DNA of 64,000 nucleotides from positions 7,601-71,600 of the forward strand of contig JBAZJR010000001.1 in the NCBI GenBank assembly GCA_041651195.1, given 5' to 3'. Below are positions 7,087-46,478 of the stretch, piece by piece. The notes beneath the pieces were generated by a model. It was not told the origin of the DNA, searched no databases, and worked only from the letters and a program-made list of their open reading frames with translations. The first letter of the stretch is position 1, and every line of letters starts with the position of its first letter. This DNA is from Patescibacteria group bacterium (GTDB lineage: Bacteria; Patescibacteriota; Patescibacteriia; Patescibacteriales; UBA12465). The position numbers and the translations under genes are program-made.

Positions 7087-7087
7087 G

Positions 7088-7294: not shown

Positions 7295-7322
7295 CCGGAA
7301 AATTATATTGTTAAAGTCTATC

Positions 7323-7398: not shown

Positions 7399-7412
7399 AT
7401 AATAAGAAACCG

Positions 7413-20599: not shown

Positions 20600-20601
20600 A
20601 G

Positions 20602-20675
20602 TGGACCCTAAGGGATTCGAACCCTTGACCCCCTGCTTGCAAAGCAGGTGCTCTGACCAGCTGAGCTAAGGGCCC
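20602..20675 (-). tRNA. tRNA-Ala (UGC)
   Basis: Acceptor GGGCCCU/AGGGUCC with the G3:U70 identity pair, anticodon loop UUUGCAA, T-arm AAGGG-UUCGAAU-CCCUU. Confidence 0.9.
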
Positions 20676-32436: not shown

Positions 32437-33201
32437 CTATTCTTTGCTGATGCTCCAGAGCGTTTCAAACATCAGCCTGTTCATCTCATAAATATCTTTA
32501 TTTTCGATCAGTATGGAGATTATTTTTCCCTTATTGATAACCTGGAAAGATATTTTGCCGTCATAAATCTGGATAGAAGTCTTGAAGGTGGCGGACAGAT
32601 TCTCTAAATAACGGATAGCCGTTATTTTTTCATATTCAGAATTTTGTTCACTCCCTTGATCGGGCCGTTCACCGACACGGATAATTTTTTTCTTTATTCC
32701 GAGCTTCTCTCGTTTTTGTTTATATTCCAGATTGGCTTCTTGAAATTCACCCTCTTCATTAAGGGCTTGTTTATTCAGGAGAAGATAGATTTCCGTTTTG
32801 CTCGATAAAGTGTCTTCTAAAATTTTTCGCAGCCCTTCTTCTCCCTCATAAAATCTCACTCCCGGCTTATTGCTGATCAGGCTATAAGCGGAAATCAGGT
32901 CGGGCAGGGCGTTGATGAATTCCTGTTTATGCTTGATCGCTTCTTTTTCTTTCTGCTCAGCAATTGTCTCTAAATTATAGGGGTGTTCGGCGGCAAAAAT
33001 AGTGATACCCTTAACTTCCTCGGTCTTGGAGACTAAATTGAGCCTAATTAACTCATCCAAGCCTTTATAAGCGACCCCGCGGGGCCGTTTTATTTTTTTA
33101 GCGATATTACTGGCCTTGTCAGGGCCGGAATTCAGCAGGGAATCCAGGATTTCCGCCTGGACCTTGGATAAGCCGAGATTATAAAGAGTTTTTTCGTACA
33201 T
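32437..33201 (-). CDS. TrmB-family transcriptional regulator
   Basis: N-terminal wHTH (LGLSKVQAEILDSLLNSGPDKASNIAKKIKRPRGVAYKGLDELIRLNLV) followed by a TrmB-like C-terminal domain. Confidence 0.75.
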   Translation of the reverse strand: MYEKTLYNLGLSKVQAEILDSLLNSGPDKASNIAKKIKRPRGVAYKGLDELIRLNLVSKTEEVKGITIFAAEHPYNLETIAEQKEKEAIKHKQEFINALPDLISAYSLISNKPGVRFYEGEEGLRKILEDTLSSKTEIYLLLNKQALNEEGEFQEANLEYKQKREKLGIKKKIIRVGERPDQGSEQNSEYEKITAIRYLENLSATFKTSIQIYDGKISFQVINKGKIISILIENKDIYEMNRLMFETLWSISKE

Positions 33202-33441
33202 ATATTTGTTTTTTATTGTTTTAATAGTGGCTAGGGGGGATTCTTCCTGTGGATAACTTTACAAAAATTAAGTTTTATTTTGTTAGTAGTTTAAGGGTCA
33301 CATTAATCCATAGTCATATTATAGCGCATATTAAATATAGTGTCAACTCTTAAAATGACAAAAAAAGAAAATAAATATGCGTATTTAAAGCATTTCTGTC
33401 TATATTTTAATAACATTTGCCAAAAATAGTCTTTTTAAGTC

Positions 33442-33470
33442 TTGACAATTATCTCAGAGCGTGCTAAACT
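33442..33470 (+). promoter_or_regulatory. near-consensus sigma70-type promoter at the head of the island
   Basis: TTGACA (33442-47), a 17-nt spacer ending in TGc (extended -10), then TAAACT (33465-70). The predicted TSS is about 33477. Confidence 0.7.
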
Positions 33471-33584
33471 TAAGTTATCGAAAATGAGAAAGGAAAGAAA
33501 CGGGCAAAACGCAGTACATTACATTCAAATAAAATAATGGAAGGAGAGAGCCATTATCAACTTAGTTTACTACGATCTTTATAT

Positions 33585-33651
33585 AAAGGGGTATTAGGCG
33601 GGTTAAGCTTTCTCATTCTATTAGAAAGTTTTTCCGCTTAGTACCCTTTTT
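33585..33651 (+). terminator. long three-tier hairpin ending in a U-run (attenuator/terminator candidate)
   Basis: Pairings AAAGGG/CCCUUU, GGCGG/CCGCU and AAGCUUUCU/AGAAAGUUU, with U47-U51 at the 3' side. It lies about 110-175 nt after the predicted TSS. Confidence 0.45.
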
Positions 33652-34265
33652 GGTTGGAAGAGAGCGGATAGTCATGGAGAGGAGAGAGATTTAGTCCCTG
33701 CGCTAGCGCCCACAGCCTAGAGCAGCTCTAAATAAGAAGCGCGGCCGATCGGAACTAAAAATATCATTTGGAAACGCCACCCCATGCCGTTTCCCAAAAT
33801 TCCTTCAAGGACGCCGAATAAACTCCCCTTCATAACTATCCGCTTTGAGCGGAACCGAAGCGATTGCGGCACAATTGCCCCAATTATTTAGGGAATAAAT
33901 AAATCAGTTAGATCAGCTTATCGATTTTAGGAGATCAAATGGACACATAAGCTTTAAGAATAAAGCGGAGAGGGTTCATCTCCTGAGATTAATAAAGATT
34001 TAACAGTTTGCTTCCGGGATCAACCCGGGATCAGGCGGGAAGTGAGTCAGAGCCGAGTAGCGTCGCAAACCGCCGCGGAGCCGAGACGATCCTAGTAGCG
34101 CGTGGCCCAGTTATCCTTAACGGGATGAGCAAGCTCCGGGAACGGCACGAACGCCACCGTCTTCTTACGAGGAGATCGGCTGAGCCCCAAGCCTTGAACA
34201 AGCTTAGGCCCAGAAATTTCCTCGGAAAAGTATAATTAGCCGAGAAAAAGTTCTTTGAAACTAAT
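33652..34265 (+). ncRNA. candidate large structured non-coding leader RNA (class unknown)
   Basis: About 600 nt with no credible ORF. It is more GC-rich than the flanks and dense in local hairpins (for example GGAAACG/CGUUUCC at 33770-94 and GGAGA-GGGUUCA-UCUCC at 33967-84). It is co-oriented with the operon. Confidence 0.3.
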
Positions 34266-34289
34266 TTGAAAACAAAAAAGGAGTCCCGC

Positions 34290-34517
34290 GTGAGTAAAGT
34301 AAGCGCGGGAAAGGATATGAGTGATATTCAAATTCAATTGGTAAATGCTGGTCTAACCACCCAGCAAAAAATTGACGAAATCAATCGCCAGAAGGCGATT
34401 GATAAAAATTTTGTCCGGGTTGCGCGAAAAGCAAAACCCGGAGTTTCTCCCAAAATTTGGGAGAAATATGCCCGCTTGAAAAGGCAGGCGTCAAAAGATT
34501 TACAGTTTGTATACTAA
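34290..34517 (+). CDS. small basic protein (75 aa), unknown function
   Basis: The GTG at 34290 lies 6 nt after AAGGAG (34278-83). The ORF track opens at an upstream TTG (34266) that lacks an SD. Confidence 0.55.
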   Translation: MSKVSAGKDMSDIQIQLVNAGLTTQQKIDEINRQKAIDKNFVRVARKAKPGVSPKIWEKYARLKRQASKDLQFVY

Positions 34518-34631
34518 ACTGTAAATCAAGTTTCAAATTGGTTTAGCTTATCCCAAATCAAAAAATAAGCAGGCTATCCCACCGGATCGCCGGAGCTATT
34601 TCTACGCTCGAAGCGTCCATAAAAAGTTTAA

Positions 34632-34710
34632 AGAGCAGTGTCGTTCAAACATTGCTCTCCCTCCCGGGATGCGTGTTCCGGCTGATGAGTCCGAAAGGAC
34701 GAAAGGGAAG
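34632..34710 (+). ncRNA. hammerhead ribozyme copy 1 (type III) with 5' P0 hairpin
   Basis: P0 AGAGCAGUG/CAUUGCUCU. CCCUC with cleavage predicted after C34663. Stem I CCGGGA-UGCGUG-UUCCGG. Core CUGAUGA. Stem II GUCC-GAAA-GGAC. Then GAAA and GGGA. Confidence 0.9.
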
Positions 34711-34745
34711 TTCTTTGAAATTAAATTCATTAAATAAAATGCGGC

Positions 34746-34766
34746 TCCGACGTATTCGGGCAAGGA
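34746..34766 (+). promoter_or_regulatory. conserved leader hairpin plus SD (copy A)
   Basis: UCCGA-CGUAU-UCGGG hairpin, then cAAGGA, with the ATG 5 nt later. It is preceded by an A-rich tract and GCGGC. Confidence 0.7.
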
Positions 34767-34771
34767 ATAAG

Positions 34772-34990
34772 ATGGAAGAATTATTGAAGCAGCTCGGTTT
34801 TTCTAAAAGTCATAATCAATATGATTATGACAAGCATATAAAAAATAGAATATACATAACAGTTTATCCCAGCGGTGAAGGCTGGGAGGTGGCTGTTAGT
34901 TCTGAAAATTCGGACGGGAGCGCCAATACCATTTTTCTCGGCGCAACCACTGAGAAGAAAATAAGCCTCTTAGTTGAAGCGTTATTCTAA
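34772..34990 (+). CDS. small protein (72 aa), unknown function
   Basis: The ATG at 34772 is correctly spaced from the SD of leader copy A. The longer tracked ORF (from 34652) would read through the ribozyme. Confidence 0.6.
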   Translation: MEELLKQLGFSKSHNQYDYDKHIKNRIYITVYPSGEGWEVAVSSENSDGSANTIFLGATTEKKISLLVEALF

Positions 34991-35173
34991 GTAGACTTTA
35001 AATTTGGCAACGCAGCGGATTCTGCGGGATATACTTTTGACTCAAGTTGAGTTAAAAGCGGTTAGTTGATTATCCTTTAAAATCAGCGAGACTAGAAATT
35101 TAAATACTCATATAAATCTAAGTGAGTTCTTAGAGGAAACTGAGGAGATACTAATTTCTAGGGGAGAAGCGTC

Positions 35174-35485
35174 ATGTTTTTACTTAACGCTTTTTCCCTC
35201 AACATGATTTCTATCTTTCCGATAGCCATCAAGGTTGAGGAAATCTCTTTAGAGCAGGCTAAAGCCCTAGCCGCTGAAACTATTTCAGCAGTCGGTCACG
35301 CTGATACAGCTAATGTATTCAGCAGTGTTCTTGGGGTTAATGTGCCGACAAACAGAACGACCGTCGTCCTTAAAAAAGACGATCAAGCTCTCGTTGGTCA
35401 GTATATTGGGCCTCGTCTTCCGGAAGGGGCAACAACCTTACCGGAAGGCGCCACCATCAAGTGGCTCTTAGTTACCTTAGGGTAA
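35174..35485 (+). CDS. DUF1874 / AcrIII-1 (Crn2)-family ring-nuclease-like protein
   Basis: LLNAFSLNM N-terminus, AVGHADTA (conserved GH), NRTTVVLKKDDQALV and GPRLPEG. This matches the pattern I recall for STIV B116 / SIRV1 gp29. Confidence 0.7.
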   Translation: MFLLNAFSLNMISIFPIAIKVEEISLEQAKALAAETISAVGHADTANVFSSVLGVNVPTNRTTVVLKKDDQALVGQYIGPRLPEGATTLPEGATIKWLLVTLG

Positions 35486-35579
35486 TTAAGAAGAGATTGG
35501 GTGCGATTCGGGATTAAACCTTGAGGTTATGCTGTTAACCTTGCCGAATAAAAGCGGATCACCGCGACAGTAAGTTCAC

Positions 35580-35660
35580 GAGGGATGGCGTCAGTTCAAA
35601 CGTTGTCCTCCCTCCCGAGATGCGTGTCTCGGCTGATGAGTCCGAAAGGACGAAAGGGAA
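35580..35660 (+). ncRNA. hammerhead ribozyme copy 2 (type III) with 5' P0 hairpin
   Basis: P0 AGGGAUGGCG/CGUUGUCCU. CCCUC with cleavage after C35614. Stem I CCGAGA-UGCGUG-UCUCGG, a compensatory G:C to A:U change relative to copies 1, 3 and 4. Canonical core. Confidence 0.9.
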
Positions 35661-35789
35661 GTTCTTTAAAACCAGGCATTAATGGATTTAATTATTTTTT
35701 GAGATGTTTTTATAATTGTGTTCGTTCCGTCCAGATGATTTAAAGACGAATCGGATAATAATTAAATTCATTAAGTAAAAAAATGCGGC

Positions 35790-35810
35790 TCCGACGTATT
35801 CGGGCAAGGA
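35790..35810 (+). promoter_or_regulatory. conserved leader hairpin plus SD (copy B)
   Basis: Identical to copy A (UCCGA-CGUAU-UCGGG-cAAGGA). About 50 nt of upstream sequence (ttaaattcattaa.taaaa..atgcggc) is also shared with copy A. Confidence 0.7.
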
Positions 35811-35816
35811 TGAAAG

Positions 35817-37538
35817 TTGAAAAGGATTATAGTTTGCGGGCCACCCCATAGTGGAAAATCAGTGTTTTTAGCGAATCTGATGCGGCTGCTACCGCCAGAT
35901 TCGTTTTATTTAGCCTTCGCCGCTCCGGACGGCGAATGGCATTGGAGTAATTTCGGTGACCAGGATCTCGTATCCGTAGTTCGCCAGAAAGGAAAGTTCT
36001 CCGAGGATTTCGTTTCCTCAATGGAGAACGCCATTCGGAACAACCAGCAGCCGCTCGTGTTGGTTGACACCGGGGGAGTAATGTCCCCGGAAAACGGGCG
36101 GATATTTGATGTTTGCGAAGGGTGCATCATCCTCGCAAACAGCGAGAAAAGTAATGACGCAATTCCTGCCTGGCGTGAATTTGCCGCTAGCCATAGCGTG
36201 CAGGTTCTGGCCGAAATCGTTAGTGACCTTCATGGCACTAATGAACTCATCTCGTCGGGAGATGGGGATGGCGGGAAAATTATCGGTCGGATTGCCGGCC
36301 TTGAGCGCGGGCAGACAATTAATTCGCCCGTGCTGGAGGCGGTGGCAAACCGCCTGCGGGAAGTTATCCGGAGCAATTCGGAACTGACCGAAGGCGAGCT
36401 TCTTTGTAATGTGAACGGCGCCACTCTCGTGGACCGTATCGGCATTACCGAAAAGAATGACCCTTTCCTGGGGGTCAGGCCGATTCATCTCCAGGATGCC
36501 CTGCGTCTGACTAGTGCAGTGGCAAAATTAGAGACTGTGCGCATTTGGAATGTGCGCGCAGCTATCCTGGCCTGTGCTATGGCGAGCAGGTTCTCTGGCA
36601 ACATTGAACTATATGATGTTGCTAAGGGATATTTTCGTATCCCGGATGCGGTTCCGCAAGGCGCAGGGTGCAAGGATTGCGGTGTCGAATGGGAAGTGTT
36701 AGAGCTCCCCGAATTTACACTGGTTAGATTCCGTCCAACGCGGTTTATTACCGAGCGCGATTTGCCTAATATTTATCCTCCGGTAGTTGACACCACCAAA
36801 CCGGTCGTGATTGCTCACGACGGACCGCCGATGTGGCTTGATGCCACGGTAGTTCGTGCTTATTGGCGCTCGGGCGTGCCATACGTGGCTATGCTTTGGC
36901 CCGTGGAAAGTGCCCGCTCCCAAAAGCATCTTGGCGGGAAAAAATGGGATAAGGTATACCCGTTTGCTGGACCGGCCGTGGTAGTTGCTGGATCGGCAGA
37001 GAAAATCGGAGACATTATTCCAGTCTCCTTTGACCTCTTGAAATGGGACGCGCCGGTTGTTGGAAAATTAGCGTCTGGGCAAATAGTGATTGATCGCAAG
37101 GACAGCCATGTCCAAGGCCATTCCGAAGTCCTTCCTCTTCTTGTGGAAGCGCTTGCAAAGATCCATGCTATGGACCGTAAGAGTTTCTGTGAAGAGATAA
37201 GATTTTGTCGTACCATAGGCGAAACAATCTGCATTAATACAACTGACGCTGATGAAATTATTTATGCTCAACGCCCAAATCGCCGCGGGTTGACGCGGTT
37301 TGTCAAAAATCGTCAGCCCGAAGCAACCAGTTCAGTGGTTGCTTGCTTCATGAAAAATGATGGTATGGGAGGAGCCTATCTTCTCACAACCGCATTTATT
37401 GGGAGTCGCGCTCCTGCCGAGCCGTGGGACAAGCAGTGGGCGACCGAGGAATCGGCTACTTTCTGGAATACCCATGCTTTGATTTTTGAGAAATCAGAGA
37501 TCGTTGATGGGACTGAAACTGATAAGTGCCCATGGTAA
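35817..37538 (+). CDS. P-loop NTPase fused to a large C-terminal region with possible Csx3-like segments
   Basis: The TTG start lies 6 nt after the leader SD. Walker A is CGPPHSGKS and Walker B-like is LVLVDTGG. Segments RIWNVRAAILACAMA...ELYDVAKGYFRI and HDGPPMWLDATVV...VAMLWP...GPAVVVAGS are present. Confidence 0.7.
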   Translation: MKRIIVCGPPHSGKSVFLANLMRLLPPDSFYLAFAAPDGEWHWSNFGDQDLVSVVRQKGKFSEDFVSSMENAIRNNQQPLVLVDTGGVMSPENGRIFDVCEGCIILANSEKSNDAIPAWREFAASHSVQVLAEIVSDLHGTNELISSGDGDGGKIIGRIAGLERGQTINSPVLEAVANRLREVIRSNSELTEGELLCNVNGATLVDRIGITEKNDPFLGVRPIHLQDALRLTSAVAKLETVRIWNVRAAILACAMASRFSGNIELYDVAKGYFRIPDAVPQGAGCKDCGVEWEVLELPEFTLVRFRPTRFITERDLPNIYPPVVDTTKPVVIAHDGPPMWLDATVVRAYWRSGVPYVAMLWPVESARSQKHLGGKKWDKVYPFAGPAVVVAGSAEKIGDIIPVSFDLLKWDAPVVGKLASGQIVIDRKDSHVQGHSEVLPLLVEALAKIHAMDRKSFCEEIRFCRTIGETICINTTDADEIIYAQRPNRRGLTRFVKNRQPEATSSVVACFMKNDGMGGAYLLTTAFIGSRAPAEPWDKQWATEESATFWNTHALIFEKSEIVDGTETDKCPW

Positions 37539-37579
37539 TAATCAGTATAAACCAATAGATAAATCATAAAAACCGCGGC

Positions 37580-37604
37580 CCCGACGGTCAAATCGGGCAA
37601 GGAG
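37580..37604 (+). promoter_or_regulatory. conserved leader hairpin plus SD (copy C)
   Basis: CCCGA-CGGUCAAA-UCGGG, then cAAGGAG, with the ATG 5 nt later. It is preceded by aaaaaCCGCGGC. Confidence 0.65.
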
Positions 37605-37609
37605 AATTA

Positions 37610-38005
37610 ATGATGAAAACTACAAAATTTTTTGCAAGTTTAGGTGTTGTCCCTGGTTATGGCCACGATAACGCGACTGACGCCAGTGCGGTTGATATTG
37701 CTGGCAACGCCTGGCAAGCAGCTGCTGCAGGCGTGTTCGCTGAACAAAAAGTTTACGTCGGGGCGATAATTACGCCAGCCCGTACGGTTTACCATAAAGA
37801 CTGGGGTTGCCCAGTCGGTGGCGAATTAACGGTTTTGATTACTGGGGAACGCAACCCCCAGTATACGGCGGAAGAAAACTTCAAGACGGCCGTAGTTGAA
37901 ACTTTAAAAAGGACTGCTCAAGCGTTGAAGCAGTCTACCACGCAGGTAACTTTTCAGGAAGTCGATATGGAATATCTTGACTTTCGTGAAAAGAAGCCTG
38001 AATAA
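37610..38005 (+). CDS. hypothetical protein (131 aa)
   Basis: Good SD and spacing. No recognisable motif. Confidence 0.6.
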   Translation: MMKTTKFFASLGVVPGYGHDNATDASAVDIAGNAWQAAAAGVFAEQKVYVGAIITPARTVYHKDWGCPVGGELTVLITGERNPQYTAEENFKTAVVETLKRTAQALKQSTTQVTFQEVDMEYLDFREKKPE

Positions 38006-38064
38006 AGTTGCGGATCCTCTAGTCCACGGAGGAATTGGCTAAGCCAGTGGAAAGTTCATGAGAC

Positions 38065-38144
38065 AGAGCAATGATAGTTCAAGCATTGCTCTCCCTCCCG
38101 GGATGCGTGTCCCGGCTGATGAGTCCGAAAGGACGAAAGGGAAG
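38065..38144 (+). ncRNA. hammerhead ribozyme copy 3 (type III) with 5' P0 hairpin
   Basis: P0 AGAGCAAUG/CAUUGCUCU, a perfect 9 bp. CCCUC with cleavage after C38097. Stem I CCGGGA-UGCGUG-UCCCGG. Canonical core and GAAA-capped stem II. Confidence 0.9.
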
Positions 38145-38164
38145 AACATTAAAAACTTAATAGG

Positions 38165-38236
38165 GTTTGACTGCGAACCGAGTCTCGGTGCGCCAGTTTT
38201 TGATTTAGCTGGCCGAGATTGAGTTAGCAGTCAAAC
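38165..38236 (+). promoter_or_regulatory. structured 5' UTR of the MoxR-like gene
   Basis: Outer 10-bp helix GUUUGACUGC/GCAGUCAAAC encloses CCGAG / CUCGG / CCAG...CUGG / CCGAG segments. The central CUCGG can pair with either CCGAG. Confidence 0.5.
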
Positions 38237-38266
38237 TTAAACAAAAAACAAGAGGAGGAGTTAATC

Positions 38267-39493
38267 ATGGATGCTATAGTAAAAAAGTTGCAAAATAATG
38301 AGACGGAAATTTGCCGTCTCTTAATTGGACGGAAAGAAGAAGTCCGAGGTATTTTCTTGGCGGTTTTAGCCCGCCAGCATGCGATTCTATTCGGGCCGCA
38401 CGGTGAAGCAAAATCAATGCTTTTGGATTACTTTGTAGAAGGTATTGATGGCGCGTCGGTATTTACTAAAACCGTAGCGCAGGATACTTTACCGGATGAT
38501 CTCTTTGTAGCCGCTTACGATTTTCTCATGGAAAATCTGGAAGGCGGCAAACAACGCAACATTACGGAGCCGATTACGACCGGTATGATGCCGGAAGCGC
38601 ACTTTGCAATGTTGCGGGAATTATTCCGATGTTCCGGGCCTACTTTAAATGCTTTATTAACCGCTATCAACGAACGCTATTATGAGGTTCGCGGCCAGCG
38701 GAAGAAAATGCCTTTAATTTCTGTCTTTGGGGACACTAATAATCTCCCCGGCGAGGATTTGGAAGCTTTCTATGATCGCTTCATGCTCCGGTATGTAGTG
38801 GATCGTATTGCCGAAAAATCCGAAAGGATCCGGATGCGCCAGTTATCTCATCAGCGTCGCCAAGGCAACCCGAGCGCTAAACCTAAATTGAGCAAGGTCA
38901 CTTTAGAAGAACTTGCTTCAGTTCAGGAAACAGTGCTCGCCGTTGACATTAATGAGCGGATTGATGATCTTATTGAAACCATAATTGAAAAACTTTACAG
39001 CGAAGGAGTGATCATTTATGGCCGACGTGATGTTCGTCTTAATCCATTGCTTCAAGCCAACGCCTATTTAGAGGGTCGGGACGAAGTAACGGAAGCGGAT
39101 CTCGTCGATGTTCTCCCGCATGTGCTCTGGGATAATCCGGATCATCAAAAGTTGGTTCGCAAAGTTATCTTATCGGTCGCTAATCCGCTTGGTTTATTAG
39201 TCCAAGAACTATTGGACGAAGCCAAGGAATTACGTGATGCCGCCATCAGTCGCAAGAAAGATGACGGAAGCGATAAGAACGACGCGGAATATAATCGCGG
39301 TGGGTCAGAAGCTAACGCTAAACTTAAAAAGTTAATTTCTGGCGACGATAACGCCGGCATTAAAGGAATAACTCAACTTTTTGAGGAAGCAAAAAAATCT
39401 GGCTTCCCAACCAAAAGCATCCAGGACGCTTTAGATACAGTTAAGCGCTATCAGCGCGATGTGGCTAAAGAGGTTATGGGTTTTGACGTTTAG
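38267..39493 (+). CDS. RavA-like MoxR-family AAA+ ATPase (atypical Walker B)
   Basis: Walker A is [35 protein letters not shown] aligns with my recollection of RavA ([23 protein letters not shown]), so the Walker B Asp is Arg here. An [10 protein letters not shown] block is also present. Confidence 0.8.
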   Translation: [408 protein letters not shown]

Positions 39494-39506
39494 GAGAGGA
39501 GGGGCC

Positions 39507-41096
39507 ATGAAAAAGACTGAAAACGTCGTATATTCTGACCGCTACGATAAAAGGACTTTTGAGTCTATAAAGTCGCGGGCGGCCAGAATACAAGAATTGG
39601 AAAATAAAGGTCTGGAGAAGTTGCCAAGTTATTCGCCTTTACTTATGGATTTGTATTCAATTCTGTACAAGACAGATCCGATTTTGAAGTCTAAAGAAAA
39701 AGTAAAGGCGAGCGAACTCATCAACAGGAATATAATTGAAAAAGTTATGGATACCAAGCAGTATCCAGAACTACGAAGTTATACCTATTTGGATGAATTC
39801 GCTAGCTCCATGGCTGTCCTGTCGTTGGGCGAAGCGGTCTTAGAATTGATTCCTGAAGATGCAAAGCAGAAAATGCAAAACATTAAAAGTCAGGAAGATA
39901 ATCAGTTACAAGGTCTGCAAGATCAAGCAGAGCGGGCGCAGGAAGCAGCAGATTGGGCAAGCGATGAGGCCCAGGAAGCAGCCGATGCCGCTCGCGAAGC
40001 AAAGAAAAGTAATAGTTCGCAAGCTAGCAAATTTCAGCAACGGGCGCAACAAGCTAAAGATAGAGCGCAGCAAATGTCCGATCAAGCCGAACAAGCTCAA
40101 ATGACATTTGAAGAGGCGCAACAGAAGCTGGCCGAGCAGGCGGAAGCAATTGAGCAGGAACTGGAGGATGGAGCGGGCGAGAAAATGCGCCAAGCGATTC
40201 GTAAGGCGGCTAAGCAGTCACGCGACCAAGCGGAAGAGCAGACTGAAACTTTAGAAGCTTGGGGCACGGAGCCCGGTGAGATCCAGAAGTTATCTTATGA
40301 GGATAAGATGGCTTTAGCCGAAAGGCTGAAGAACAATAAAAAACTTCGTGAGATAGCTAAAATCGTCGGGCGTTTCCGTCGGATGGCTATTGCCAAACAA
40401 AAGGAGAAAATAAATTCTCGGACTGGCGTCGTCACTAACGTGAAACGAGGTAATGATTTGCGGAGATTAGTTCCGGCTGAACGCTCTAAATTCGCTCATC
40501 CGTCGATGCGATTAGATTTCATCCGTCGCTTTGCTTCTAAGCAATTATTTGTCTTCGAAACCGAAGAAAAACAAAGTTTGGGACAAGGTCCGGTGATAGT
40601 CGGCATTGATAATTCTGGATCAATCACTTCCGAACAGGAAATTTGGGAAAAAGGTTTAGCGCTTGGATTATATCAATGCGCTGATTATCAGAACCGCCAT
40701 TTCATATTCATTCAATATGGCGGACCCAGCGATCCTCTCAAAGTGATTGAGATTAAAAAGGGTGAAGCGAGCTATTTGAAGCTCCTAGAAGTAGCTGAAT
40801 ATTTTTTGGGCGGTGGCACTGACTTTGAAAAGCCGTTGAAGAAAGCACAAGAATATATTGAGAAAGGACTAAAAGCCGATATCGTTTTTATTACGGATGG
40901 CGAATGCGCGGTTTCCAGCGAATTCTTAATAGAATTCAATGAAGCGCGCAAGAAAATCCCTTTTAACGTATTCTCCGTTCTGCTTAATATCGGCGGTCGG
41001 ACCAGTTCGGCCAGCCTGGAAAAGTTTAGTGACGAATTATTCAATGTCAGCGAGCTCACGGTTGAGCAAGCTGGCGCGGTGTTTGCCCGGGTTTAA
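39507..41096 (+). CDS. VWA-domain protein (ViaA/CobT-like) with a central Gln/Ala/Glu-rich coiled-coil
   Basis: The ATG at 39507 follows GGAGAGGAGG. The MIDAS motif is VGIDNSGS, followed by GGGTDF and VFITDGE. The tracked ORF start (39459) overlaps the upstream gene. Confidence 0.8.
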   Translation: MKKTENVVYSDRYDKRTFESIKSRAARIQELENKGLEKLPSYSPLLMDLYSILYKTDPILKSKEKVKASELINRNIIEKVMDTKQYPELRSYTYLDEFASSMAVLSLGEAVLELIPEDAKQKMQNIKSQEDNQLQGLQDQAERAQEAADWASDEAQEAADAAREAKKSNSSQASKFQQRAQQAKDRAQQMSDQAEQAQMTFEEAQQKLAEQAEAIEQELEDGAGEKMRQAIRKAAKQSRDQAEEQTETLEAWGTEPGEIQKLSYEDKMALAERLKNNKKLREIAKIVGRFRRMAIAKQKEKINSRTGVVTNVKRGNDLRRLVPAERSKFAHPSMRLDFIRRFASKQLFVFETEEKQSLGQGPVIVGIDNSGSITSEQEIWEKGLALGLYQCADYQNRHFIFIQYGGPSDPLKVIEIKKGEASYLKLLEVAEYFLGGGTDFEKPLKKAQEYIEKGLKADIVFITDGECAVSSEFLIEFNEARKKIPFNVFSVLLNIGGRTSSASLEKFSDELFNVSELTVEQAGAVFARV

Positions 41097-41141
41097 TGCG
41101 GGCAACGCCGTTAATCTAATAAATATAACTAAATAATAAAT

Positions 41142-41175
41142 CCGGTCCGCGGTGAGACGCGGCAGCATTTACCGG
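41142..41175 (+). promoter_or_regulatory. nested hairpin in the 5' UTR of the 407-aa gene
   Basis: CCGG...CCGCG-GUGAGA-CGCGG...CCGG, followed by an A-tract and AAGGAGG. The inner hairpin resembles the one over the 34290 start codon. Confidence 0.45.
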
Positions 41176-41194
41176 AAAAAACAAGGAGGAAATA

Positions 41195-42418
41195 ATGCGA
41201 TATATTAGTTTTTCTGATATTAAGTCCGCCGTAGATTTATATCATGGTTTACCGGCCGCCACCTTTTTCAAAGGGTTGACCGGTTATGGGTTAGTTTCCG
41301 AAGACGGAGTGGAGAGTATTGGCAAGATCGGACCTTGGTCCGGTATTTGGAAGCCGATGTATTTCTTTATTTCTGGCGGACAGCAACAAGCTTCTAAAAT
41401 TTTAACTGCTGATGATATTAAAAAATCAGTAGAAAAATTTTTAGGAAATGAGCTGTTTGCTCTGTTGCGAGTAAAAACCGGAAAAGGAATTAGATTGAAT
41501 TCTGGGTTTCCAGAAGTAGTTGATTCCGCCAAATCTGAAACAGAAATCAGCTATGAGTTAAATCATTTCGGCGGACGGTCAATTACACCACGGCTGGAAG
41601 TCGGACTTAACTCCTTGCAGGATCCCAATATAAAATGGCAGTCGGGATTCCTGTATCAAGATAAAAATCATGTTGCCCCAAAAATAAATAAGCGATTGTT
41701 GCTTAGTCGCGTTTTGGTGCAAAGTGATTTTGCTGATCAGGCTAGTTATGAGATAGCCTGGCAGGAAGTGGAGAAAGAAATAAAAAGATTGCTTTTTATG
41801 CACTGTGAGGGCAATCTGGTGAAGGTCGCGACTAATGGTGGCGATCGCGTTAGAACGTTTTTTTCACAGGAACTGACTGGTCTGTTGCCGCACAGTCAGA
41901 TAGACAAAAAAAAGGGTTTTGATTATTCTCAACGTTCGGACGGAACGGTAGTAATTCAAAAATCCGTTCAGCCTCGGGAATATCAAGATGCCGGAACATT
42001 CGAAAAGTATATGGAAGATTTTACGAAAGAATGTTCTCGCGTTTACACCCTTTATTGCCAGCCGCTATCCGATGCTCAAAGGAAAAAACTAGGCAAGCCA
42101 GGCAATGAAGAAGGCGAACTAGTTTTTACCGCCAACGGCGATTTTGAACGCGATGAAAGACGTTCAAATGAAGATAATGAACAGCTGATTATGTGGCGTC
42201 ATCGTCGCGGTGCGCCCCATTTCCCTTATGAAGGCTGGCAGCCGGAGAAGGGAAAAGATTACTATGTAATCTGCCATAAGTGGGGGAATGGTTATCGAGT
42301 ATCTCCTGGCTCGGCTCGCTATGAGCAAAGAACAGGGGAAAAATTCATTGAAAAAATTAAAAAGGAGTTTGACGGCAGCGAGAATGTGATTGCCCAGACT
42401 CCAATCGTTAGTTCTTAA
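41195..42418 (+). CDS. hypothetical protein (407 aa), third gene of the MoxR-VWA block
   Basis: Strong SD (AAGGAGG). No motif recognised. Confidence 0.65.
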   Translation: MRYISFSDIKSAVDLYHGLPAATFFKGLTGYGLVSEDGVESIGKIGPWSGIWKPMYFFISGGQQQASKILTADDIKKSVEKFLGNELFALLRVKTGKGIRLNSGFPEVVDSAKSETEISYELNHFGGRSITPRLEVGLNSLQDPNIKWQSGFLYQDKNHVAPKINKRLLLSRVLVQSDFADQASYEIAWQEVEKEIKRLLFMHCEGNLVKVATNGGDRVRTFFSQELTGLLPHSQIDKKKGFDYSQRSDGTVVIQKSVQPREYQDAGTFEKYMEDFTKECSRVYTLYCQPLSDAQRKKLGKPGNEEGELVFTANGDFERDERRSNEDNEQLIMWRHRRGAPHFPYEGWQPEKGKDYYVICHKWGNGYRVSPGSARYEQRTGEKFIEKIKKEFDGSENVIAQTPIVSS

Positions 42419-42430
42419 AAAAGTTCAAAA

Positions 42431-42506
42431 AAGTGAATAGCATAGTTCCTTTAGGTCTATTCACTTCTTTTCTGAAATCAGCAAGTGATTGGTGATTTCA
42501 GAGAAG
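42431..42506 (+). terminator. two tandem hairpins downstream of the 407-aa gene (weak terminator or processing site)
   Basis: AAGUGAAUAG/CUAUUCACUU (10 bp, loop contains UAGUUCC) is followed by CUUUUCU. Then CUUUUCUGAAAUCA/UGAUUUCAGAGAAG (14 bp with one G:U). Confidence 0.4.
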
Positions 42507-42610
42507 AAAATAAAGGCGGAGGAGAATATTTTATAATTTCTCTCCTATAATTCTGTTCTTTTCCGCTTTTTCTTCTAGTTCATTAAAAGTTGAATAAGGC
42601 CAAGATTTTT

Positions 42611-42657
42611 TAGCTACTATTTCTGGGGTTCGGATAAAACTCTAGAAATAGTAGCTA
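42611..42657 (+). other. perfect 14-bp hairpin with a GUUC-containing loop (ribozyme-less P0-like element)
   Basis: UAGCUACUAUUUCU, a 19-nt loop GGGGUUCGGAUAAAACUCU, then AGAAAUAGUAGCUA. It lies 30 nt upstream of leader copy D. Confidence 0.6.
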
Positions 42658-42687
42658 AACAAATTAAACCAATAAAAAAATCGCGGC

Positions 42688-42710
42688 CCCGACGTATTCG
42701 GGCAAGGGGA
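42688..42710 (+). promoter_or_regulatory. conserved leader hairpin plus SD (copy D)
   Basis: CCCGA-CGUAU-UCGGG, then cAAGGGGA, with the ATG 4 nt later. It is preceded by aaaaaaaUCGCGGC. Confidence 0.7.
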
Positions 42711-42714
42711 AATA

Positions 42715-43095
42715 ATGAAAAAAATAGTAATTTTTTCTTTACTGTTATTGCTGTTGCCGGCCTGCCGGGATAGCCAAGTTGACTTAGAAAAATCTGGCAT
42801 CAAAATTGGCGGAATAGTAAAGTCGGAATACGGAAATATAGCTATAACCGACATTAGTAGTCGCGCGGAAACGGCAGATTTTTCCGTATTTCGATTGACA
42901 GGGATTCTGTATGTTGACTCCATCGTGGCTTATACATCGTGGAGCTCAAGATACTTCAATGGCCCCGCCTGGCATGTCCTAAACAATGGACGCAGCTACT
43001 TTATCAGGGGTGACAACGGGAATTATTCATATTACGATATGGATCTCGATTATGCGAGATTTTATACAATAATTTCTGAGGTTCGCCAGAACTAA
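42715..43095 (+). CDS. putative lipoprotein (126 aa)
   Basis: Signal peptide with a lipobox: MKKIVIFSLLLLLLPAC. Confidence 0.65.
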   Translation: MKKIVIFSLLLLLLPACRDSQVDLEKSGIKIGGIVKSEYGNIAITDISSRAETADFSVFRLTGILYVDSIVAYTSWSSRYFNGPAWHVLNNGRSYFIRGDNGNYSYYDMDLDYARFYTIISEVRQN

Positions 43096-43120
43096 AAAGG
43101 GAAGCGTTAAGTTTTTAGCA

Positions 43121-43200
43121 AGGGTGGCACTCGTTCTATTGCCGCCCTACCCTCCCGGGATGCGTGTCCCGGCTGATGAGTCCGAAAGGACGAAAGGGTA
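43121..43200 (+). ncRNA. hammerhead ribozyme copy 4 (type III) with 5' P0 hairpin
   Basis: P0 AGGGUGGCA/UGCCGCCCU. ACCCUC with cleavage after C43154. Stem I CCGGGA-UGCGUG-UCCCGG. Canonical core. The outermost stem III pair is flipped to A:U (ACCCU/AGGGU), where the other copies have U:A. Confidence 0.9.
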
Positions 43201-43245
43201 ATCTACTAAAAATTATATCAACGCAATAAAAAAAATAAAACCGTG

Positions 43246-43268
43246 CTCGACGGTTATCGAGTAAGGAG
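43246..43268 (+). promoter_or_regulatory. conserved leader hairpin plus SD (copy E)
   Basis: CUCGA-CGGUUA-UCGAG, a compensatory C:G to U:A change, then uAAGGAG, with the ATG 5 nt later. It is preceded by aaaaaauaaaaCCGUGC. Confidence 0.65.
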
Positions 43269-43273
43269 AGATT

Positions 43274-43480
43274 ATGGATATCCAAGAATTTAAATATTTG
43301 TTATCCACTGAGCTTAATAGTGCTGGAATAAAGAACGTCCTCATTAAAGAGGACGGGATAACAATAATTAGGGGCGTTGTTAATGTCCCTAACGAAGAGA
43401 TACAAAACTTTATCGATCGTTATGGGGATAATCCCCTGCCGATTGAGAAGTTATTTGTTTGTGTAAGAGTGCTTCAATAG
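43274..43480 (+). CDS. small protein (68 aa), unknown function
   Basis: Good SD and spacing. It lies entirely between ribozyme copies 4 and 5. Confidence 0.55.
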   Translation: MDIQEFKYLLSTELNSAGIKNVLIKEDGITIIRGVVNVPNEEIQNFIDRYGDNPLPIEKLFVCVRVLQ

Positions 43481-43488
43481 TGTTCAAG

Positions 43489-43587
43489 AGGGATGACGTC
43501 AGTTCAAACGTTGTCCTCCCTCTCAGGATTATATCCTGACTGATGAGTCCTCGTTTTGCCACTAGGGCGGACAAAGGACGAAAGGGA
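43489..43587 (+). ncRNA. hammerhead ribozyme copy 5 (divergent type III)
   Basis: P0 AGGGAUGACG/CGUUGUCCU. CCCUC with cleavage after C43522. Stem I is fully replaced but still paired (UCAGGA-UUAUA-UCCUGA). Core CUGAUGA. Stem II GUCC...GGAC carries a 25-nt insertion. Then GAAA-GGGA. Confidence 0.85.
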
Positions 43588-43595
43588 AAATCGAG

Positions 43596-43638
43596 ACGGC
43601 CGGAATTATGTTATAAACGGCCGGGAATTATGCTATAA
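43596..43638 (+). repeat. tandem direct repeat (21 + 22 nt)
   Basis: ACGGCCGGAATTATGTTATAA / ACGGCCGGGAATTATGCTATAA. Each ends in an extended -10-like TGnTATAA. Confidence 0.8.
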
Positions 43639-43645
43639 TATGATT

Positions 43646-43753
43646 AACCGCCTTTGAAGCGTAGAGCGTAAAAGACAGAACATTATTAAAACTCTCTCTC
43701 CTTAATACTGTACTTTCTTTTTACAACGCTCTACACTTGAAGGGCGGTTTTTG
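43646..43753 (+). terminator. long inverted repeat plus U-run: probable terminator of the island operon
   Basis: 24-nt arms (43646-69 and 43726-49) with 21 Watson-Crick pairs, 1 G:U and 2 mismatches. The loop is 56 nt and is followed by UUUUU. Confidence 0.6.
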
Positions 43754-43760
43754 CTATAAT
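43752..43760 (+). promoter_or_regulatory. extended -10 element (TGCTATAAT), candidate ftsK promoter
   Basis: A perfect TGnTATAAT 55 nt upstream of the ftsK ATG. An identical copy lies at 43631-39. Confidence 0.5.
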
Positions 43761-43814
43761 AAAAGCAGATTAATAAGAAACCGCCTAAAATAATGGTTTT
43801 TCCATTTTTTATTT

Positions 43815-46478
43815 ATGTCTAGACGAAAAAAGACTAACCCCTTGGATTATATCGCTCTGCCGGAATTCAATCTGGACGAGAAAGCGAAGCGCAGCATCTT
43901 GATCGTGATCCTGCTCGTTTTCGGGCTGATCAGCCTGCTCGGGTTATTTAATTTAGCCGGCCATTTCGGCCTCTTTATCTCTAAATGGCTCACGCTTATC
44001 TTCGGTTTCGGCAAATGGCTCGTGCCCTTCATCTTCTTATATTGGGCCCTGGTCTTAGTTCGGAAAGCCAAGCGGCCTCTGAAATTTACGGATTCTCTCG
44101 GCCTATTCCTATTATTCATCTCCTATCAGACTCTTTTCCATTTTTTCCTGGAACCGGCGCGCTGGGAGAGCGCAGTCGCGATCGGGACGGGCGGCGGCTA
44201 TATCGGCTGGTATCTGAGCCGTCTTTTCTTTTACGTTTTCGGTTTTTGGGGCGGAGTTTTGGTCTTAGCCGCCTGCCTCTTGATTTCTCTAGTCTTGGTC
44301 TTCAATACTTCATTATCCCGTCTGATTGGCCAGGATAGTTTTTTCGCTAAGCTCTTCCGCCCCTTCGTCTGGTTTTTTAGGAGCCTGTTCAGCGATTCTG
44401 GCGCGACAGAGGAAAGAGAGAACGAAGGGAAAAAATATATTGATGAGGCGCGTGAAGAGATTTTGGAAGCCTGGCAGAAGAAAGAGGTACCGGCGAGCCT
44501 GGAAATAATCGAGGAAGAAATCGAAGAAGAACCGAGTCCGGCCGCAGCCAAAAAAGATAAGCCGAAAGTCCAGGAAAAGATCGTCTGGCCGAAGCGTTCG
44601 ATCAAGATTGATATGCCGCTCGAACTCCTGAATAATAAATCAGGGAAGGCCATCGGCGGCGATACGGAACTCAATGCCCAGCGGATCCAGAAGACGCTAG
44701 AAAAATTCGGCATCAATGTCGAGATGGGTGAGACTAAAGTCGGTCCGACCGTGACCCAATATACTTTCCGGCCGGCCGAAGGCGTAAAATTATCCCGCAT
44801 CACGACTTTGAATAATGATTTATCGCTAGCCCTAGCGGCGCATCCGATCCGGATCGAAGCGCCGATTCCCGGCAAATCTTTAGTCGGCGTGGAAGTGCCG
44901 AATCGCGCGAAGGCGATCGTCGGTCTGCGAGAAATCTTGGAAGATAGCGCTTTCAAGAGCCGGAAGAATAATCTTTTCATCGCTCTCGGCAAAGACGTGG
45001 CTGGCACGGCTTGGCTCTATGACTTGACCAAGATGCCGCACCTGCTTGTCGCTGGCGCCACCAATTCCGGCAAGTCGGTCTGTTTGAACGCGATCATCGT
45101 CAGCCTGCTCTATCAGAATAATCCGGACGATCTGCGTTTTATCATGGTCGATCCGAAGCGGGTGGAGCTCCCGACCTATAACGGCATCCCGCATCTTTTG
45201 ACGCCGGTCATCACCGATGTCAATAAGACGATCAACGCCTTGAAATGGTGCTTGAACGAGATGGAACGGCGCTATGATGTTTTAAATAAAGCGGGAAAGC
45301 GCAATATCCAATCGTATAACGCGGTGAGCAAGGAAAAATTACCCTATATAGTCTTCATCATCGACGAACTGGCCGACTTCATGATGACTTCCGGCAAGGA
45401 CATGGAAGCGGCGATTATCCGTCTGGCGCAGATGTCGCGCGCTATCGGCATCCATTTGATCCTGGCGACCCAGCGGCCGAGCGTCGATGTCATCACGGGC
45501 TTGATCAAAGCCAACGTGCCGACGCGCATCGCTTTTTCCGTCGCTTCTCTAGTCGATTCAAAGACGATCTTAGATTCTTCCGGTGCGGAAAAACTATTGG
45601 GCCAGGGCGATATGCTGTTTATGTGCGCGGAATTCGCCAAGCCGAAACGCATCCAGGGGGCTTATCTGAGCGATGGCGAAATCAACGATGTTGTGAATTA
45701 TATCAAGGATAAGAGCGGTCCGGCTGAATATCTGGAGGGCGTCACCGACCGCCAGAAAGTCGGCGGCAATGCCGGCGTCGGCCTAGACGGCAACCACGGC
45801 GATGAGGATGAATTATTTGAAGAAGCAAAAGCGATCATCATCAAGGCCGGTAAGGCTTCAACCTCTATGTTGCAGCGCCGCCTGTCTATCGGTTATGGCC
45901 GCGCCGCTAAGATCCTCGATATGCTAGAAGAGGCGGGCATCATCGGTCCGTCTAACGGCGCCAAACCGCGCGAAGTGATGATCAGCCAGGAACAATACGA
46001 AGCGATGGGCGCGAGCCCGCTCAGCGGTTTGCCGGTGCATAATCGAAATGAGGCCGTTGCGCCGGATAGTTATTTAGGCGAAGATGAAGAGGAGGAGGGC
46101 GATGACGGTACTCTGGTCTTTAAAGGCGAGGACAATCGCGTCGCGGAGATTGACGAGGAGGCTGACGAGGAAGAAGCGGCAGAAGGCATTGCCCAAGAAG
46201 AGGAAGAAATAATTAAAGAAAGTTTTGCGGAGGAGCTGGAAGACGCAGAAGAAGCCGATGACGATCTGCCGGCAGAAAAAATAGAAGCTGAAAAGATCAA
46301 GGAAGAATTGCTATTAACGCCGGATGAGCAGGATGAAGTGATCGAGGATGAAGATGAGATCTTGGCGGAAATCAGGGAGAAGAAAAGCGCGCCGGCGTCT
46401 CCGGCAGCCAAGTCTTCAAATCCGGCCAAGAAGCATAATCCGCTTGAAGATGATGACGAGATGTTTTTCGCGAAATAA
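43815..46478 (+). CDS. ftsK: DNA translocase FtsK/SpoIIIE with an acidic linker and tail
   Basis: N-terminal TM helices, Walker A VAGATNSGKS, IIDELADFMM, and a gamma-domain-like SMLQRRLSIGYGRAAKILDMLE. Confidence 0.95.
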   Translation: MSRRKKTNPLDYIALPEFNLDEKAKRSILIVILLVFGLISLLGLFNLAGHFGLFISKWLTLIFGFGKWLVPFIFLYWALVLVRKAKRPLKFTDSLGLFLLFISYQTLFHFFLEPARWESAVAIGTGGGYIGWYLSRLFFYVFGFWGGVLVLAACLLISLVLVFNTSLSRLIGQDSFFAKLFRPFVWFFRSLFSDSGATEERENEGKKYIDEAREEILEAWQKKEVPASLEIIEEEIEEEPSPAAAKKDKPKVQEKIVWPKRSIKIDMPLELLNNKSGKAIGGDTELNAQRIQKTLEKFGINVEMGETKVGPTVTQYTFRPAEGVKLSRITTLNNDLSLALAAHPIRIEAPIPGKSLVGVEVPNRAKAIVGLREILEDSAFKSRKNNLFIALGKDVAGTAWLYDLTKMPHLLVAGATNSGKSVCLNAIIVSLLYQNNPDDLRFIMVDPKRVELPTYNGIPHLLTPVITDVNKTINALKWCLNEMERRYDVLNKAGKRNIQSYNAVSKEKLPYIVFIIDELADFMMTSGKDMEAAIIRLAQMSRAIGIHLILATQRPSVDVITGLIKANVPTRIAFSVASLVDSKTILDSSGAEKLLGQGDMLFMCAEFAKPKRIQGAYLSDGEINDVVNYIKDKSGPAEYLEGVTDRQKVGGNAGVGLDGNHGDEDELFEEAKAIIIKAGKASTSMLQRRLSIGYGRAAKILDMLEEAGIIGPSNGAKPREVMISQEQYEAMGASPLSGLPVHNRNEAVAPDSYLGEDEEEEGDDGTLVFKGEDNRVAEIDEEADEEEAAEGIAQEEEEIIKESFAEELEDAEEADDDLPAEKIEAEKIKEELLLTPDEQDEVIEDEDEILAEIREKKSAPASPAAKSSNPAKKHNPLEDDDEMFFAK

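Follow-up and report, generated by a model that had tools for sequence, protein, structure and literature searches.

A 64,000-nucleotide (nt) stretch of the chromosome of a Patescibacteria group bacterium (GenBank assembly GCA_041651195.1, contig JBAZJR010000001.1, positions 7,601 to 71,600; hereafter, the window) carries five short RNA elements which, judging from their sequence and its conservation in relatives, are very probably active, cis-cleaving type III hammerhead ribozymes. The elements lie in an island of co-oriented genes bordered by the genes for a TrmB-like regulator and for FtsK; each is intergenic, on the strand of the genes and 42-146 nt past a stop codon, and none occurs elsewhere in the 64 kb. 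The best explanation of the array, and one that we regard as reasonably probable, is that the five hammerheads process the mRNA between the cistrons of this hypervariable island. An earlier interpretation made from the letters of the window alone (the sequence-only reading) had proposed five type III hammerheads in one orientation, with a CUGAUGA...GAAA core and a CUC cleavage triplet; all five were found at the proposed sites on the plus strand with the proposed layout, and the cut positions that it predicted agree with both the sequence and the model alignments (Table 1).

Along the strand, every copy runs from the 5' strand of stem III, (U/A)CCCU, through the cleavage-site nucleotide C17, a stem I hairpin of 6-7 base pairs (bp), CUGAUGA, stem II and GAA to the 3' strand of stem III, AGGG(A/U), with stems I and II capped by loops and stem III open to the flanking RNA, which is the type III topology. 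The core is intact and the stems are fully paired in five of five copies, as are A15.1:U16.1 and G10.1:C11.1, and the cleavage triplet is CUC throughout. Stem II reads GUCC-GAAA-GGAC in copies 1-4, and in hammerhead 5 it is extended by a 25-nt insertion. The differences in stem I that had been taken as compensatory are present as described, namely CCGGGA/UUCCGG in copy 1, CCGAGA/UCUCGG in copy 2, CCGGGA/UCCCGG in copies 3 and 4 and UCAGGA/UCCUGA in copy 5, and so is the swap of the outermost stem III pair from U:A to A:U in copy 4.

Chance is excluded as the source of such a series, as the loose pattern CTGATGA-N(4-30)-GAAA was seen six times against an expectation of 1.03, and none of 100 shuffled sequences reached six. 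Comparison with the Rfam hammerhead model RF00008, the check by which the sequence-only reading had proposed to stand or fall, gave a divided answer: the five copies scored 39.5 (copy 1), 34.9 (copy 5), 23.8, 20.2 and 19.5 bits, all under the gathering score of 48.5, so that the curated bar was not cleared, yet they are not wholly down at noise. In a search of 12 kb, copies 1 and 5 gave full-length matches with E-values of 9e-6 and 1.7e-4, respectively, and copies 2-4 gave partial matches at 19.5-23.8 bits (E = 0.25-4). The gathering score was likewise reached by no hammerhead in seven related 20-kb loci. RF00008 falls short because it is biased towards viroid and plant hammerheads, and not because the motif is absent.

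Relatives were gathered from GTDB species-representative genomes with the exact pattern CTGATGAGTCC-N(4-30)-GGACGAAAGGG, which returned 36 stretches, mostly from Patescibacteria (Saccharibacteria, Parcubacteria, Shapirobacteria and others) with some from metagenome-assembled genomes of Gammaproteobacteria. Nearly all of them share the same type III layout, with a freely varying stem I sequence. A class-specific covariance model (R1) was built on 18 gap-free sequences and, when run with filters off on both strands of the 64 kb, found exactly five sites at 52-81 bits, the next best score being 8.9 bits. R1 also recovers hammerheads outside the search pattern, and the relatives that it finds beyond the window number about 60, mostly in Patescibacteria, a type III class that escapes Rfam at curated thresholds. 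Loop 1 is mostly UGYGUR and loop 2 GAAA or AAAA among the class members; where stem II is extended (window copy 5, L044 7553 and L110 6200; L numbers denote the loci compared) loop 1 is UUAUA-like instead, being UUAUA in copy 5 as against UGCGUG. The change of loop 1 alongside the extension of stem II hints, at the level of sequence, at a coupling between loops 1 and 2; in natural, fast-cleaving hammerheads, loop 2 makes a tertiary contact with loop 1 or with a bulge of stem I. Three viral contigs (L001-L003) were considered as class members and rejected, as they share the stem II pattern but have a closed stem III and an open stem I.

The claim that covariation supports the structure was upheld when it was extended from the five copies to an alignment of 65 distinct homologues fitted to R1, 36 of which had been chosen by a pattern in which stem II and some of stem III are fixed while stem I and position 17 are free. 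Standard pairs occupied 95.9% of the pair cells, compared with 74% after shuffling and at most 55% with the partners slid, and both sides had changed in 11 of the 16 pairs (stem I, 6/7; stem III, 4/5; stem II, 1/4). The covariation score was 0.583 versus 0.152 for shuffles and at most 0.097 for slid partners, no control reaching the observed value. A15.1:U16.1 and G10.1:C11.1 were each present in 65/65 sequences; C3, G5, A6, U7, G8, A9, G12, A13 and A14 were invariant; and position 17 was C in 60 sequences, U in three, A in two and G in none. From a MAFFT alignment of 15 extended modules, RNAalifold recovered stems I, II and III de novo, together with a further hairpin, P0, described below. 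The combination of covarying stems I and III with an essentially invariant core resembles the conservation expected of active ribozymes. That the five elements are instead inactive relics, decayed repeat copies that no longer cleave, could be argued from the sub-threshold Rfam scores, from the C found at core position 4 in some relatives and from a degenerate copy of 19.6 bits in L047; set against the perfect cores, the two diagnostic pairs and the fully paired stems of all five window copies, and against purifying selection evident across 65 sequences from many genomes, this reading is scarcely credible.

Each hammerhead of the window is preceded by the P0 hairpin, which appears in every single-sequence fold, bears GUUCAA or a close variant in its loop and has a 3' strand that finishes on the first stem III nucleotide. 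In the RNAalifold analysis of the 15 modules, both sides had changed in 8 of its 9 pairs, and elsewhere in the class a hairpin ending 0-3 nt 5' of stem III was found in about 30 of 44 members, with unrelated sequences. P0 probably stacks on the short, open 5-bp stem III and would thereby aid its formation. The modules also have recurrent flanks, with a single-stranded AAGUUCA further 5' of P0 and a conserved G(U/A)(U/A)C-N-UU-N-AAAA..AAUAG stretch 3' of each hammerhead. Three further contacts or identities were considered and dropped: a pseudoknot or outer helix between the P0 loop and the downstream flank (matched versus mismatched duplex energies, p = 0.12), an outer helix between the upstream AAGUUCA and the downstream flank (p = 0.09, unsupported), and a tRNA T-loop formed by the GUUCAA hairpin, whose closing pairs, inspected by eye, do not fit.

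The position of the modules was followed in a syntenic set of seven loci (L042-L047 and L049) fetched through homologues of the TrmB-like gene, to which the partial loci L005, L020 and L033 were added. The flank YebC-RuvC-GlgA-GH57-APH-GNAT-TrmB is common to the seven genomes, with FtsK on the opposite side where the sequence reaches, and the genes between these conserved flanks differ in every genome; the island is hypervariable and occupies a fixed TrmB-to-FtsK site of the chromosome across the clade. Six of the seven syntenic islands contain hammerheads: four in L042, three in L044, two each in L043, L045 and L049, and one plus the degenerate copy in L047. All are on the gene strand, each shortly 3' of a gene, and none lies in the conserved flanks. 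The 53-nt core of hammerhead 2 has identical copies in L020 and L043, and a unit made of a 131-amino-acid (aa) gene and a hammerhead stands first in L005 and L049, near the head of the island in L047 and third in the window. Lineage-specific changes are common to the copies of one genome, as in L044, where all three have UUCCU/AGGAA in stem III, and the four copies of L042 have a common downstream flank; such sharing indicates concerted evolution or recent duplication of modules, to judge by their sequences, in L044, in L042 and among window copies 1-4. As a separate observation on these islands, a gene in L042 and one in L046 have as their 5' leader the DUF805b RNA motif (RF02914; 4329-4363 and 6477-6511, respectively, both on the minus strand), which scores above gathering there and was not found in the window.

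This distribution would also suit a role at the boundaries of gene cassettes, in which P0 plus hammerhead, or P0 plus the alternative module B described below, would be a site of DNA homology or recombination resembling the attC of integrons, by which blocks of genes could be gained, lost and shuffled, and ribozyme activity would be secondary. The modules occupy consecutive intergenic regions in one orientation and only in the variable island, they persist while the gene content differs in every relative, the 131-aa unit takes different ranks across genomes, and module copies are homogenized within a genome; moreover, the DUF1874 motif, also found in consecutive intergenic regions, has been discussed with attC in mind (Weinberg et al. 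2017, PMC5737381), and the island has a DUF1874 gene. We nevertheless consider the boundary role unlikely. Genes for an integrase, recombinase, transposase or reverse transcriptase were absent from the scanned long open reading frames (ORFs) of the window and, by Pfam annotation, from the islands of the relatives, and P0 carries its conserved GUUC in the loop, unlike the core sites of attC, which lie in the stem. Strict conservation falls on unpaired catalytic nucleotides and position 17 is never G, constraints that make sense only for RNA catalysis. Homologous recombination between the repeats would be a by-product compatible with processing, so that the two readings are not exclusive.

Under the processing explanation, transcription of the island would start at a conserved promoter and run through a long structured leader, and each ribozyme would fold as RNA polymerase passes and cut after C17. 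The upstream product would then finish with the stable hairpin P0, a further six nucleotides and a terminal 2',3'-cyclic phosphate, a hairpin-capped 3' end that could be protected from 3' exonucleases such as the polynucleotide phosphorylase (PNPase) encoded in the window. The downstream product would begin with a 5'-OH and the compact ribozyme fold, and 5'-end-dependent RNases would attack it poorly. The island transcript would in this way be split into messages of one to four genes whose stability and translation are uncoupled, and each gene block would carry its own portable 3' processing module, which would suit a locus of constant gene swapping. The promoter proposed for this transcript is invariant in six genomes and divergent from that of the TrmB-like gene, and in the 33.5-42.4 kb stretch a scan flagged no intergenic intrinsic terminator. 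Perreault et al. (2011, PMC3088659) described genes or gene blocks flanked by several hammerheads, proposed processing into gene-length mRNAs and found that three such arrangements were cleaved at all sites during in vitro transcription; a 2019 review (PMC6765202) restates the hypothesis as still unproven and the role of bacterial hammerheads as unresolved. In the divergent promoter region, an invariant TGTGGATAA at 33248-33256 (plus strand) was also noted, a perfect complement of a DnaA box that is present in six of six aligned genomes.

Several points weigh against these interpretations. The protective roles assigned to the two new RNA ends derive from general bacterial RNA decay and not from Patescibacteria data. 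At gathering thresholds, Rfam reports five tRNAs and no hammerhead in the whole window. Core position 4 is C instead of U in 8 of the 65 homologues, none of them in the window, the carriers of this CCGAUGA core including L042 8480 and 5968, L034 543 and L012 4767, which are otherwise intact; C at this position should weaken hammerhead catalysis, and although it may be a tolerated natural variant, it follows that not every member of the class need be fast. Because copies within a genome share changes, the covariation counts overstate the number of independent events. P0 is missing from about one third of the class outside this lineage and is therefore an accessory and not a requirement. Finally, co-transcription of the island is an assumption. 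The sequence-only reading had placed all five hammerheads, each between genes, in a single operon; they are indeed intergenic and co-oriented with the genes, but the 296-nt gap at 42419-42714, with its TATAAT box, hairpin module and structure resembling a terminator, could end and restart transcription. Because of these elements the last two hammerheads may be on a separate transcript, and a single operon is a supposition.

The spacing of the hammerheads, which flank co-oriented segments of 0.37-5 kb, also brings to mind a release of RNA between pairs of ribozymes followed by closure into circles by an RtcB-type ligase, as in retrozymes, and this possibility has been raised for clustered bacterial hammerheads (PMC3088659). 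We judge it very improbable, since a search by Perreault et al. for spliced or circularized RNA came up empty (PMC3088659), the scanned long ORFs of the window included no RtcB-like gene, and the flanked segments consist of ordinary genes that code for proteins and have Shine-Dalgarno leaders.

The head of the island is occupied by the leader, a candidate new large structured RNA of this clade of Patescibacteria. In every relative, about 1 kb free of genes separates the TrmB-like gene from the first gene of the island, and the leader is about 85% identical to that of L033, compared with 76% for the flanking TrmB gene. In its 3' 400 nt, 45 of 69 predicted pairs are compensatory among 18 distinct sequences, and its strand is fixed because many of the pairs are G:U. 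No Rfam family matched it, laxer scans included, and a transfer-messenger RNA (tmRNA) was discounted, as a tRNA-like domain is missing and ARAGORN, too, detects no tmRNA. A metagenome scan with the pattern of the 3' hairpin returned 75 loci, of which 18 were true homologues and the other 57 chance matches inside ORFs of unrelated GC-rich organisms. Hammerheads lie downstream on the same strand in 10 of the 13 leader homologues with at least 1.5 kb of downstream sequence, and the motif found 3' of each hammerhead also stands 3' of the leader's terminal hairpin.

This terminal hairpin has the same loop, CCUUGAACAAG, a complement of GUUCAA in the P0 loops, in 9 of 9 leaders that were located by synteny and not by pattern. 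Another reading is a regulated switch, in which cleavage would not be constitutive: a kissing contact between this UUGAAC loop and that of P0, or pairing of the P0 5' strand (GAGGG...) with the CCCUC of the cleavage site, would switch single ribozymes on or off and thereby adjust expression block by block. The centroid folds of copies 2 and 5 do sequester CCCUC with the 5' side of P0; the P0 loops of the lineage are all GUU(C/U), and a G:U wobble would preserve pairing in the GUUUAA variants; and GTTCAA is enriched in the island (7 versus 2.7 expected). As neither kissing partner varies, however, covariation cannot test the contact, which at 4-6 AU-rich base pairs would be weak; in an RNA of 770 nt, the probability that a 6-mer complement arises by chance is a few percent, and the other long-range pairing tests gave the p values of 0.12 and 0.09 reported above. 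We regard a switch as quite improbable.

In module B the place of the hammerhead is taken by another structure. In the window it lies directly 3' of the 407-aa gene and consists of AAGUUCAAAAAA, a P0-type hairpin with AGUUC in its loop, and a long imperfect hairpin (UUCUUUUC...GAGAAGAA). The island of L046 has no hammerhead, and at the equivalent sites it has a P0-type hairpin followed by an imperfect hairpin of about 45-50 nt (UUCUUUCC...AGAGAAGAA). Compensatory changes affect 11 of 17 pairs among 18 examples of module B. Its possible identities are an RNase III-type site, a variant of a terminator (P0 with a U-rich tract) and an unknown ribozyme. That module B fills the hammerhead's place argues that the position calls for a function at the RNA level, in processing or in the formation of ends, and not for the hammerhead sequence as such. 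One might go further and imagine an RNA-organized cassette system, with the leader as its head, exchanged blocks, many related to conflict or defense, as its body, and P0 plus either a hammerhead or module B as closers, in which module B would stand in for the hammerhead as a new RNA that cleaves itself or directs a nuclease, proposed by guilt by association, the logic behind twister, pistol and hatchet, and the leader would contact the P0 loops and so coordinate how the blocks are processed or exchanged; we offer this as a doubtful speculation. No Rfam family other than the hammerhead matches the modules, and narrower, laxer scans gave no match for module B, the module flanks or the 5' leader hairpins of the genes.

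Table 1. Features of the island and its surroundings (coordinates refer to the window unless another locus is named)
Feature	Position	Strand	Remarks
PNPase gene	1113-3401		
tRNA cluster Pro, Phe, Met, Ile	7087-7486	-	Ordinary chromosomal, unrelated to island
tRNA-Ala, single	20601-20675	-	Ordinary chromosomal, unrelated to island
TrmB-like regulator gene	32437-33201	-	One island border
Sigma-70-like promoter	33442-33470	+	TTGACA, 17 nt, TAAACT with TG extension; points into island
Leader region, structured, non-coding	33477-34250	+	Island head, ~770 nt; no ORF, no called gene
Leader terminal hairpin	34168-34224	+	Loop at 34192-34202
75-aa ORF	34290-34517	+	
P0 of hammerhead 1	34632-34658	+	9-10 bp; GUUCAA in loop; 3' strand abuts stem III
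Hammerhead 1, type III	34657-34709	+	Cut after 34663; R1 77.9 bits
Hammerhead 1, stem III 5' strand	34658-34662	+	
Hammerhead 1, C17	34663	+	
Hammerhead 1, stem I	34664-34681	+	
Hammerhead 1, CUGAUGA	34682-34688	+	
Hammerhead 1, stem II	34689-34700	+	
Hammerhead 1, GAA	34701-34703	+	
Hammerhead 1, stem III 3' strand	34704-34708	+	
Hairpin and Shine-Dalgarno leaders	34739-34768, 35783-35811, 37573-37607, 42682-42711	+	Before four unrelated island genes
72-aa ORF	34772-34990	+	
DUF1874/Csx16-like gene	35174-35485	+	PADLOC Csx16, 3.9e-11
P0 hairpins of hammerheads 2-5	35582-35609, 38065-38092, 43121-43148, 43490-43517	+	
Hammerhead 2	35608-35660	+	Cut after 35614; R1 80.1 bits; 3' of DUF1874/Csx16-like gene
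AAA-Csx3 fusion gene	35817-37538	+	PADLOC, 3.6e-40
Mvol_0529-family gene	37610-38005	+	PADLOC, 1.6e-27
Hammerhead 3	38091-38143	+	Cut after 38097; R1 80.9 bits; 3' of Mvol_0529-family gene
MoxR ATPase gene	38267-39493	+	
VWA protein gene	39459-41096	+	Part of MoxR-VWA gene pair
407-aa ORF	41195-42418	+	
Module B, no hammerhead	42421-42508	+	
Module B, P0-type hairpin	42433-42464	+	
Module B, long hairpin	42465-42508	+	
126-aa lipoprotein-like ORF	42715-43095	+	N terminus MKKIVIFSLLLLLLPACRDSQ; conserved leader hairpin; uncalled in source annotation
Hammerhead 4	43148-43200	+	Cut after 43154; R1 79.9 bits; outer stem III pair A:U
68-aa ORF	43274-43480	+	
Hammerhead 5	43516-43588	+	Cut after 43522; R1 52.5 bits
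ftsK	43815-46478		Other island border
Module B in L046	~8595-8490, 6615-6515, 5345-5270	-	
Module B in other loci	L042 3119, L049 2059, L045 3462		Also in L052, L066, L068, L069, L081, L110, L115, L118

Gene identities were taken from the ORF list, Pfam, PHROGs, PADLOC and the gene calls of the source contig. The window is bacterial chromosome and not phage: a phage origin was rejected because megablast of positions 34000-44000 against a phage collection gave no match and the window carries housekeeping genes, among them those for RpoB, RpoC, FtsK, PolA, PNPase, Mur ligases, Ddl, MurJ and glycogen synthase, besides five tRNAs. The locus is present on ENA assembly ERZ27247363, the TrmB-like protein is 100% identical to an NCBI entry from a metagenome-assembled genome of a Patescibacteria group bacterium, and the stretch with the ribozymes is lower in GC (0.40-0.45). 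The scan of long ORFs, extending over most of the window, turned up no gene for an integrase, recombinase, transposase, reverse transcriptase or RtcB. A drum RNA (RF02958) suggested at 34370-34480 (plus strand) reached 31.3 bits against a gathering score of 43 (E = 0.01) and is probably spurious, because it is sub-threshold and lies inside the conserved 75-aa ORF, which is kept without insertions or deletions in L043 with 19, 14 and 28 substitutions at the first, second and third codon positions, most of them thus at the third.

Three adjoining genes of the island on the plus strand (35174-35485, 35817-37538 and 37610-38005) resemble accessory proteins of type III CRISPR systems; DUF1874/Csx16 is the family of the viral AcrIII-1 ring nucleases. 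No cas genes were found among the window ORFs scanned, no search for CRISPR repeats having been made, and the trio may be anti-defense or signaling-control genes of the island. A recurrent 5' leader, GCGGCYCCGACGUAUUCGGGCAAGGAG, forms a small hairpin directly abutting the Shine-Dalgarno sequence of several island genes, and in L020 (~808-845) it precedes a different gene. Between hammerhead 5 and ftsK, at 43648-43755 (plus strand), lies a long conserved hairpin that has CUCUCUCUCC in its apical region and UUUUU after its G+C-rich base; on its 5' side stand a direct repeat of 22 nt, ACGGCCGGRAATTATGYTATAA, and the box TGCTATAAT. The hairpin is also found in L020 (~2050-2160), L044 and L046, its Rfam match is weak and FasX-like only, and it is either the terminator of the island or a small RNA.

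Among known RNAs, the closest likeness is to RF00008 (clan CL00010), with which the elements share the CUGAUGA...GAAA core, the three-way junction, A15.1:U16.1, G10.1:C11.1 and an NUH triplet, and the GUCC-GNRA-GGAC stem II of the window is close to that of the classical sTRSV-type hammerhead. They differ from RF00008 in a stem III of only 5 bp (CCCU/AGGG), a UGYGUR loop 1 and the extra P0 that abuts stem III, and from viroid, satellite and plant hammerheads in their host, here the chromosome of a member of the Patescibacteria. RiboJ is a synthetic insulator in which an sTRSV-derived hammerhead and a hairpin decouple a gene from its upstream context. The window modules are like it in placing a hammerhead and an adjacent hairpin between expression units, where cleavage would give a defined 5'-OH end and uncouple the neighbors, but the hairpin of RiboJ is downstream and engineered, whereas P0 is upstream, natural and would be kept on the 5' product. 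Retrozymes are non-autonomous eukaryotic retroelements of plants and animals that carry type III hammerheads and form circular RNAs. The likeness lies in type III hammerheads arranged as direct repeats around an RNA segment; retrozymes, however, are non-coding and dispersed, and the segments of the window are bacterial protein-coding genes at a single locus. With attC arrays and the DUF1874 motif (PMC5737381) the modules share the arrangement of a structured repeat in consecutive intergenic regions of unrelated genes in one orientation; in contrast to integron attC sites, no integrase accompanies them in the scanned ORFs of the window, their conserved nucleotides belong to an RNA catalyst, and the conserved GUUC of P0 is in a loop, where attC hairpins have R''/R' core sites (RYYYAAC / GTTRRRY) in the stem.

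In arrangement, the nearest relatives are the prophage clusters of Clostridium scindens, Azorhizobium caulinodans and Agrobacterium tumefaciens (PMC3088659), whose hammerheads are likewise co-oriented and flank varied genes or blocks, with conflict-related genes nearby in both cases (ardA in those clusters, ring-nuclease-like genes in the island). Hammerhead arrays that flank genes have been known since 2011, and the array itself is no first. As far as we found, the new elements are the host phylum, the fixed locus with rapid gene turnover, P0, the leader RNA and module B, and our literature search found no paper linking hammerhead ribozymes to Patescibacteria or the candidate phyla radiation. 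The earlier clusters are prophage-associated and lie near integrases, whereas the window array is fixed between TrmB and FtsK, without an integrase or phage structural genes among the ORFs scanned; it has five ribozymes compared with their three, and it adds P0, the long structured leader and the alternative module at equivalent sites. A single site followed across a clade, with flanks and leader kept and genes swapped, is a clean natural experiment, and with modules at the 3' ends of gene blocks and a substitute that is not a hammerhead, it makes the idea of a processing module directly testable.

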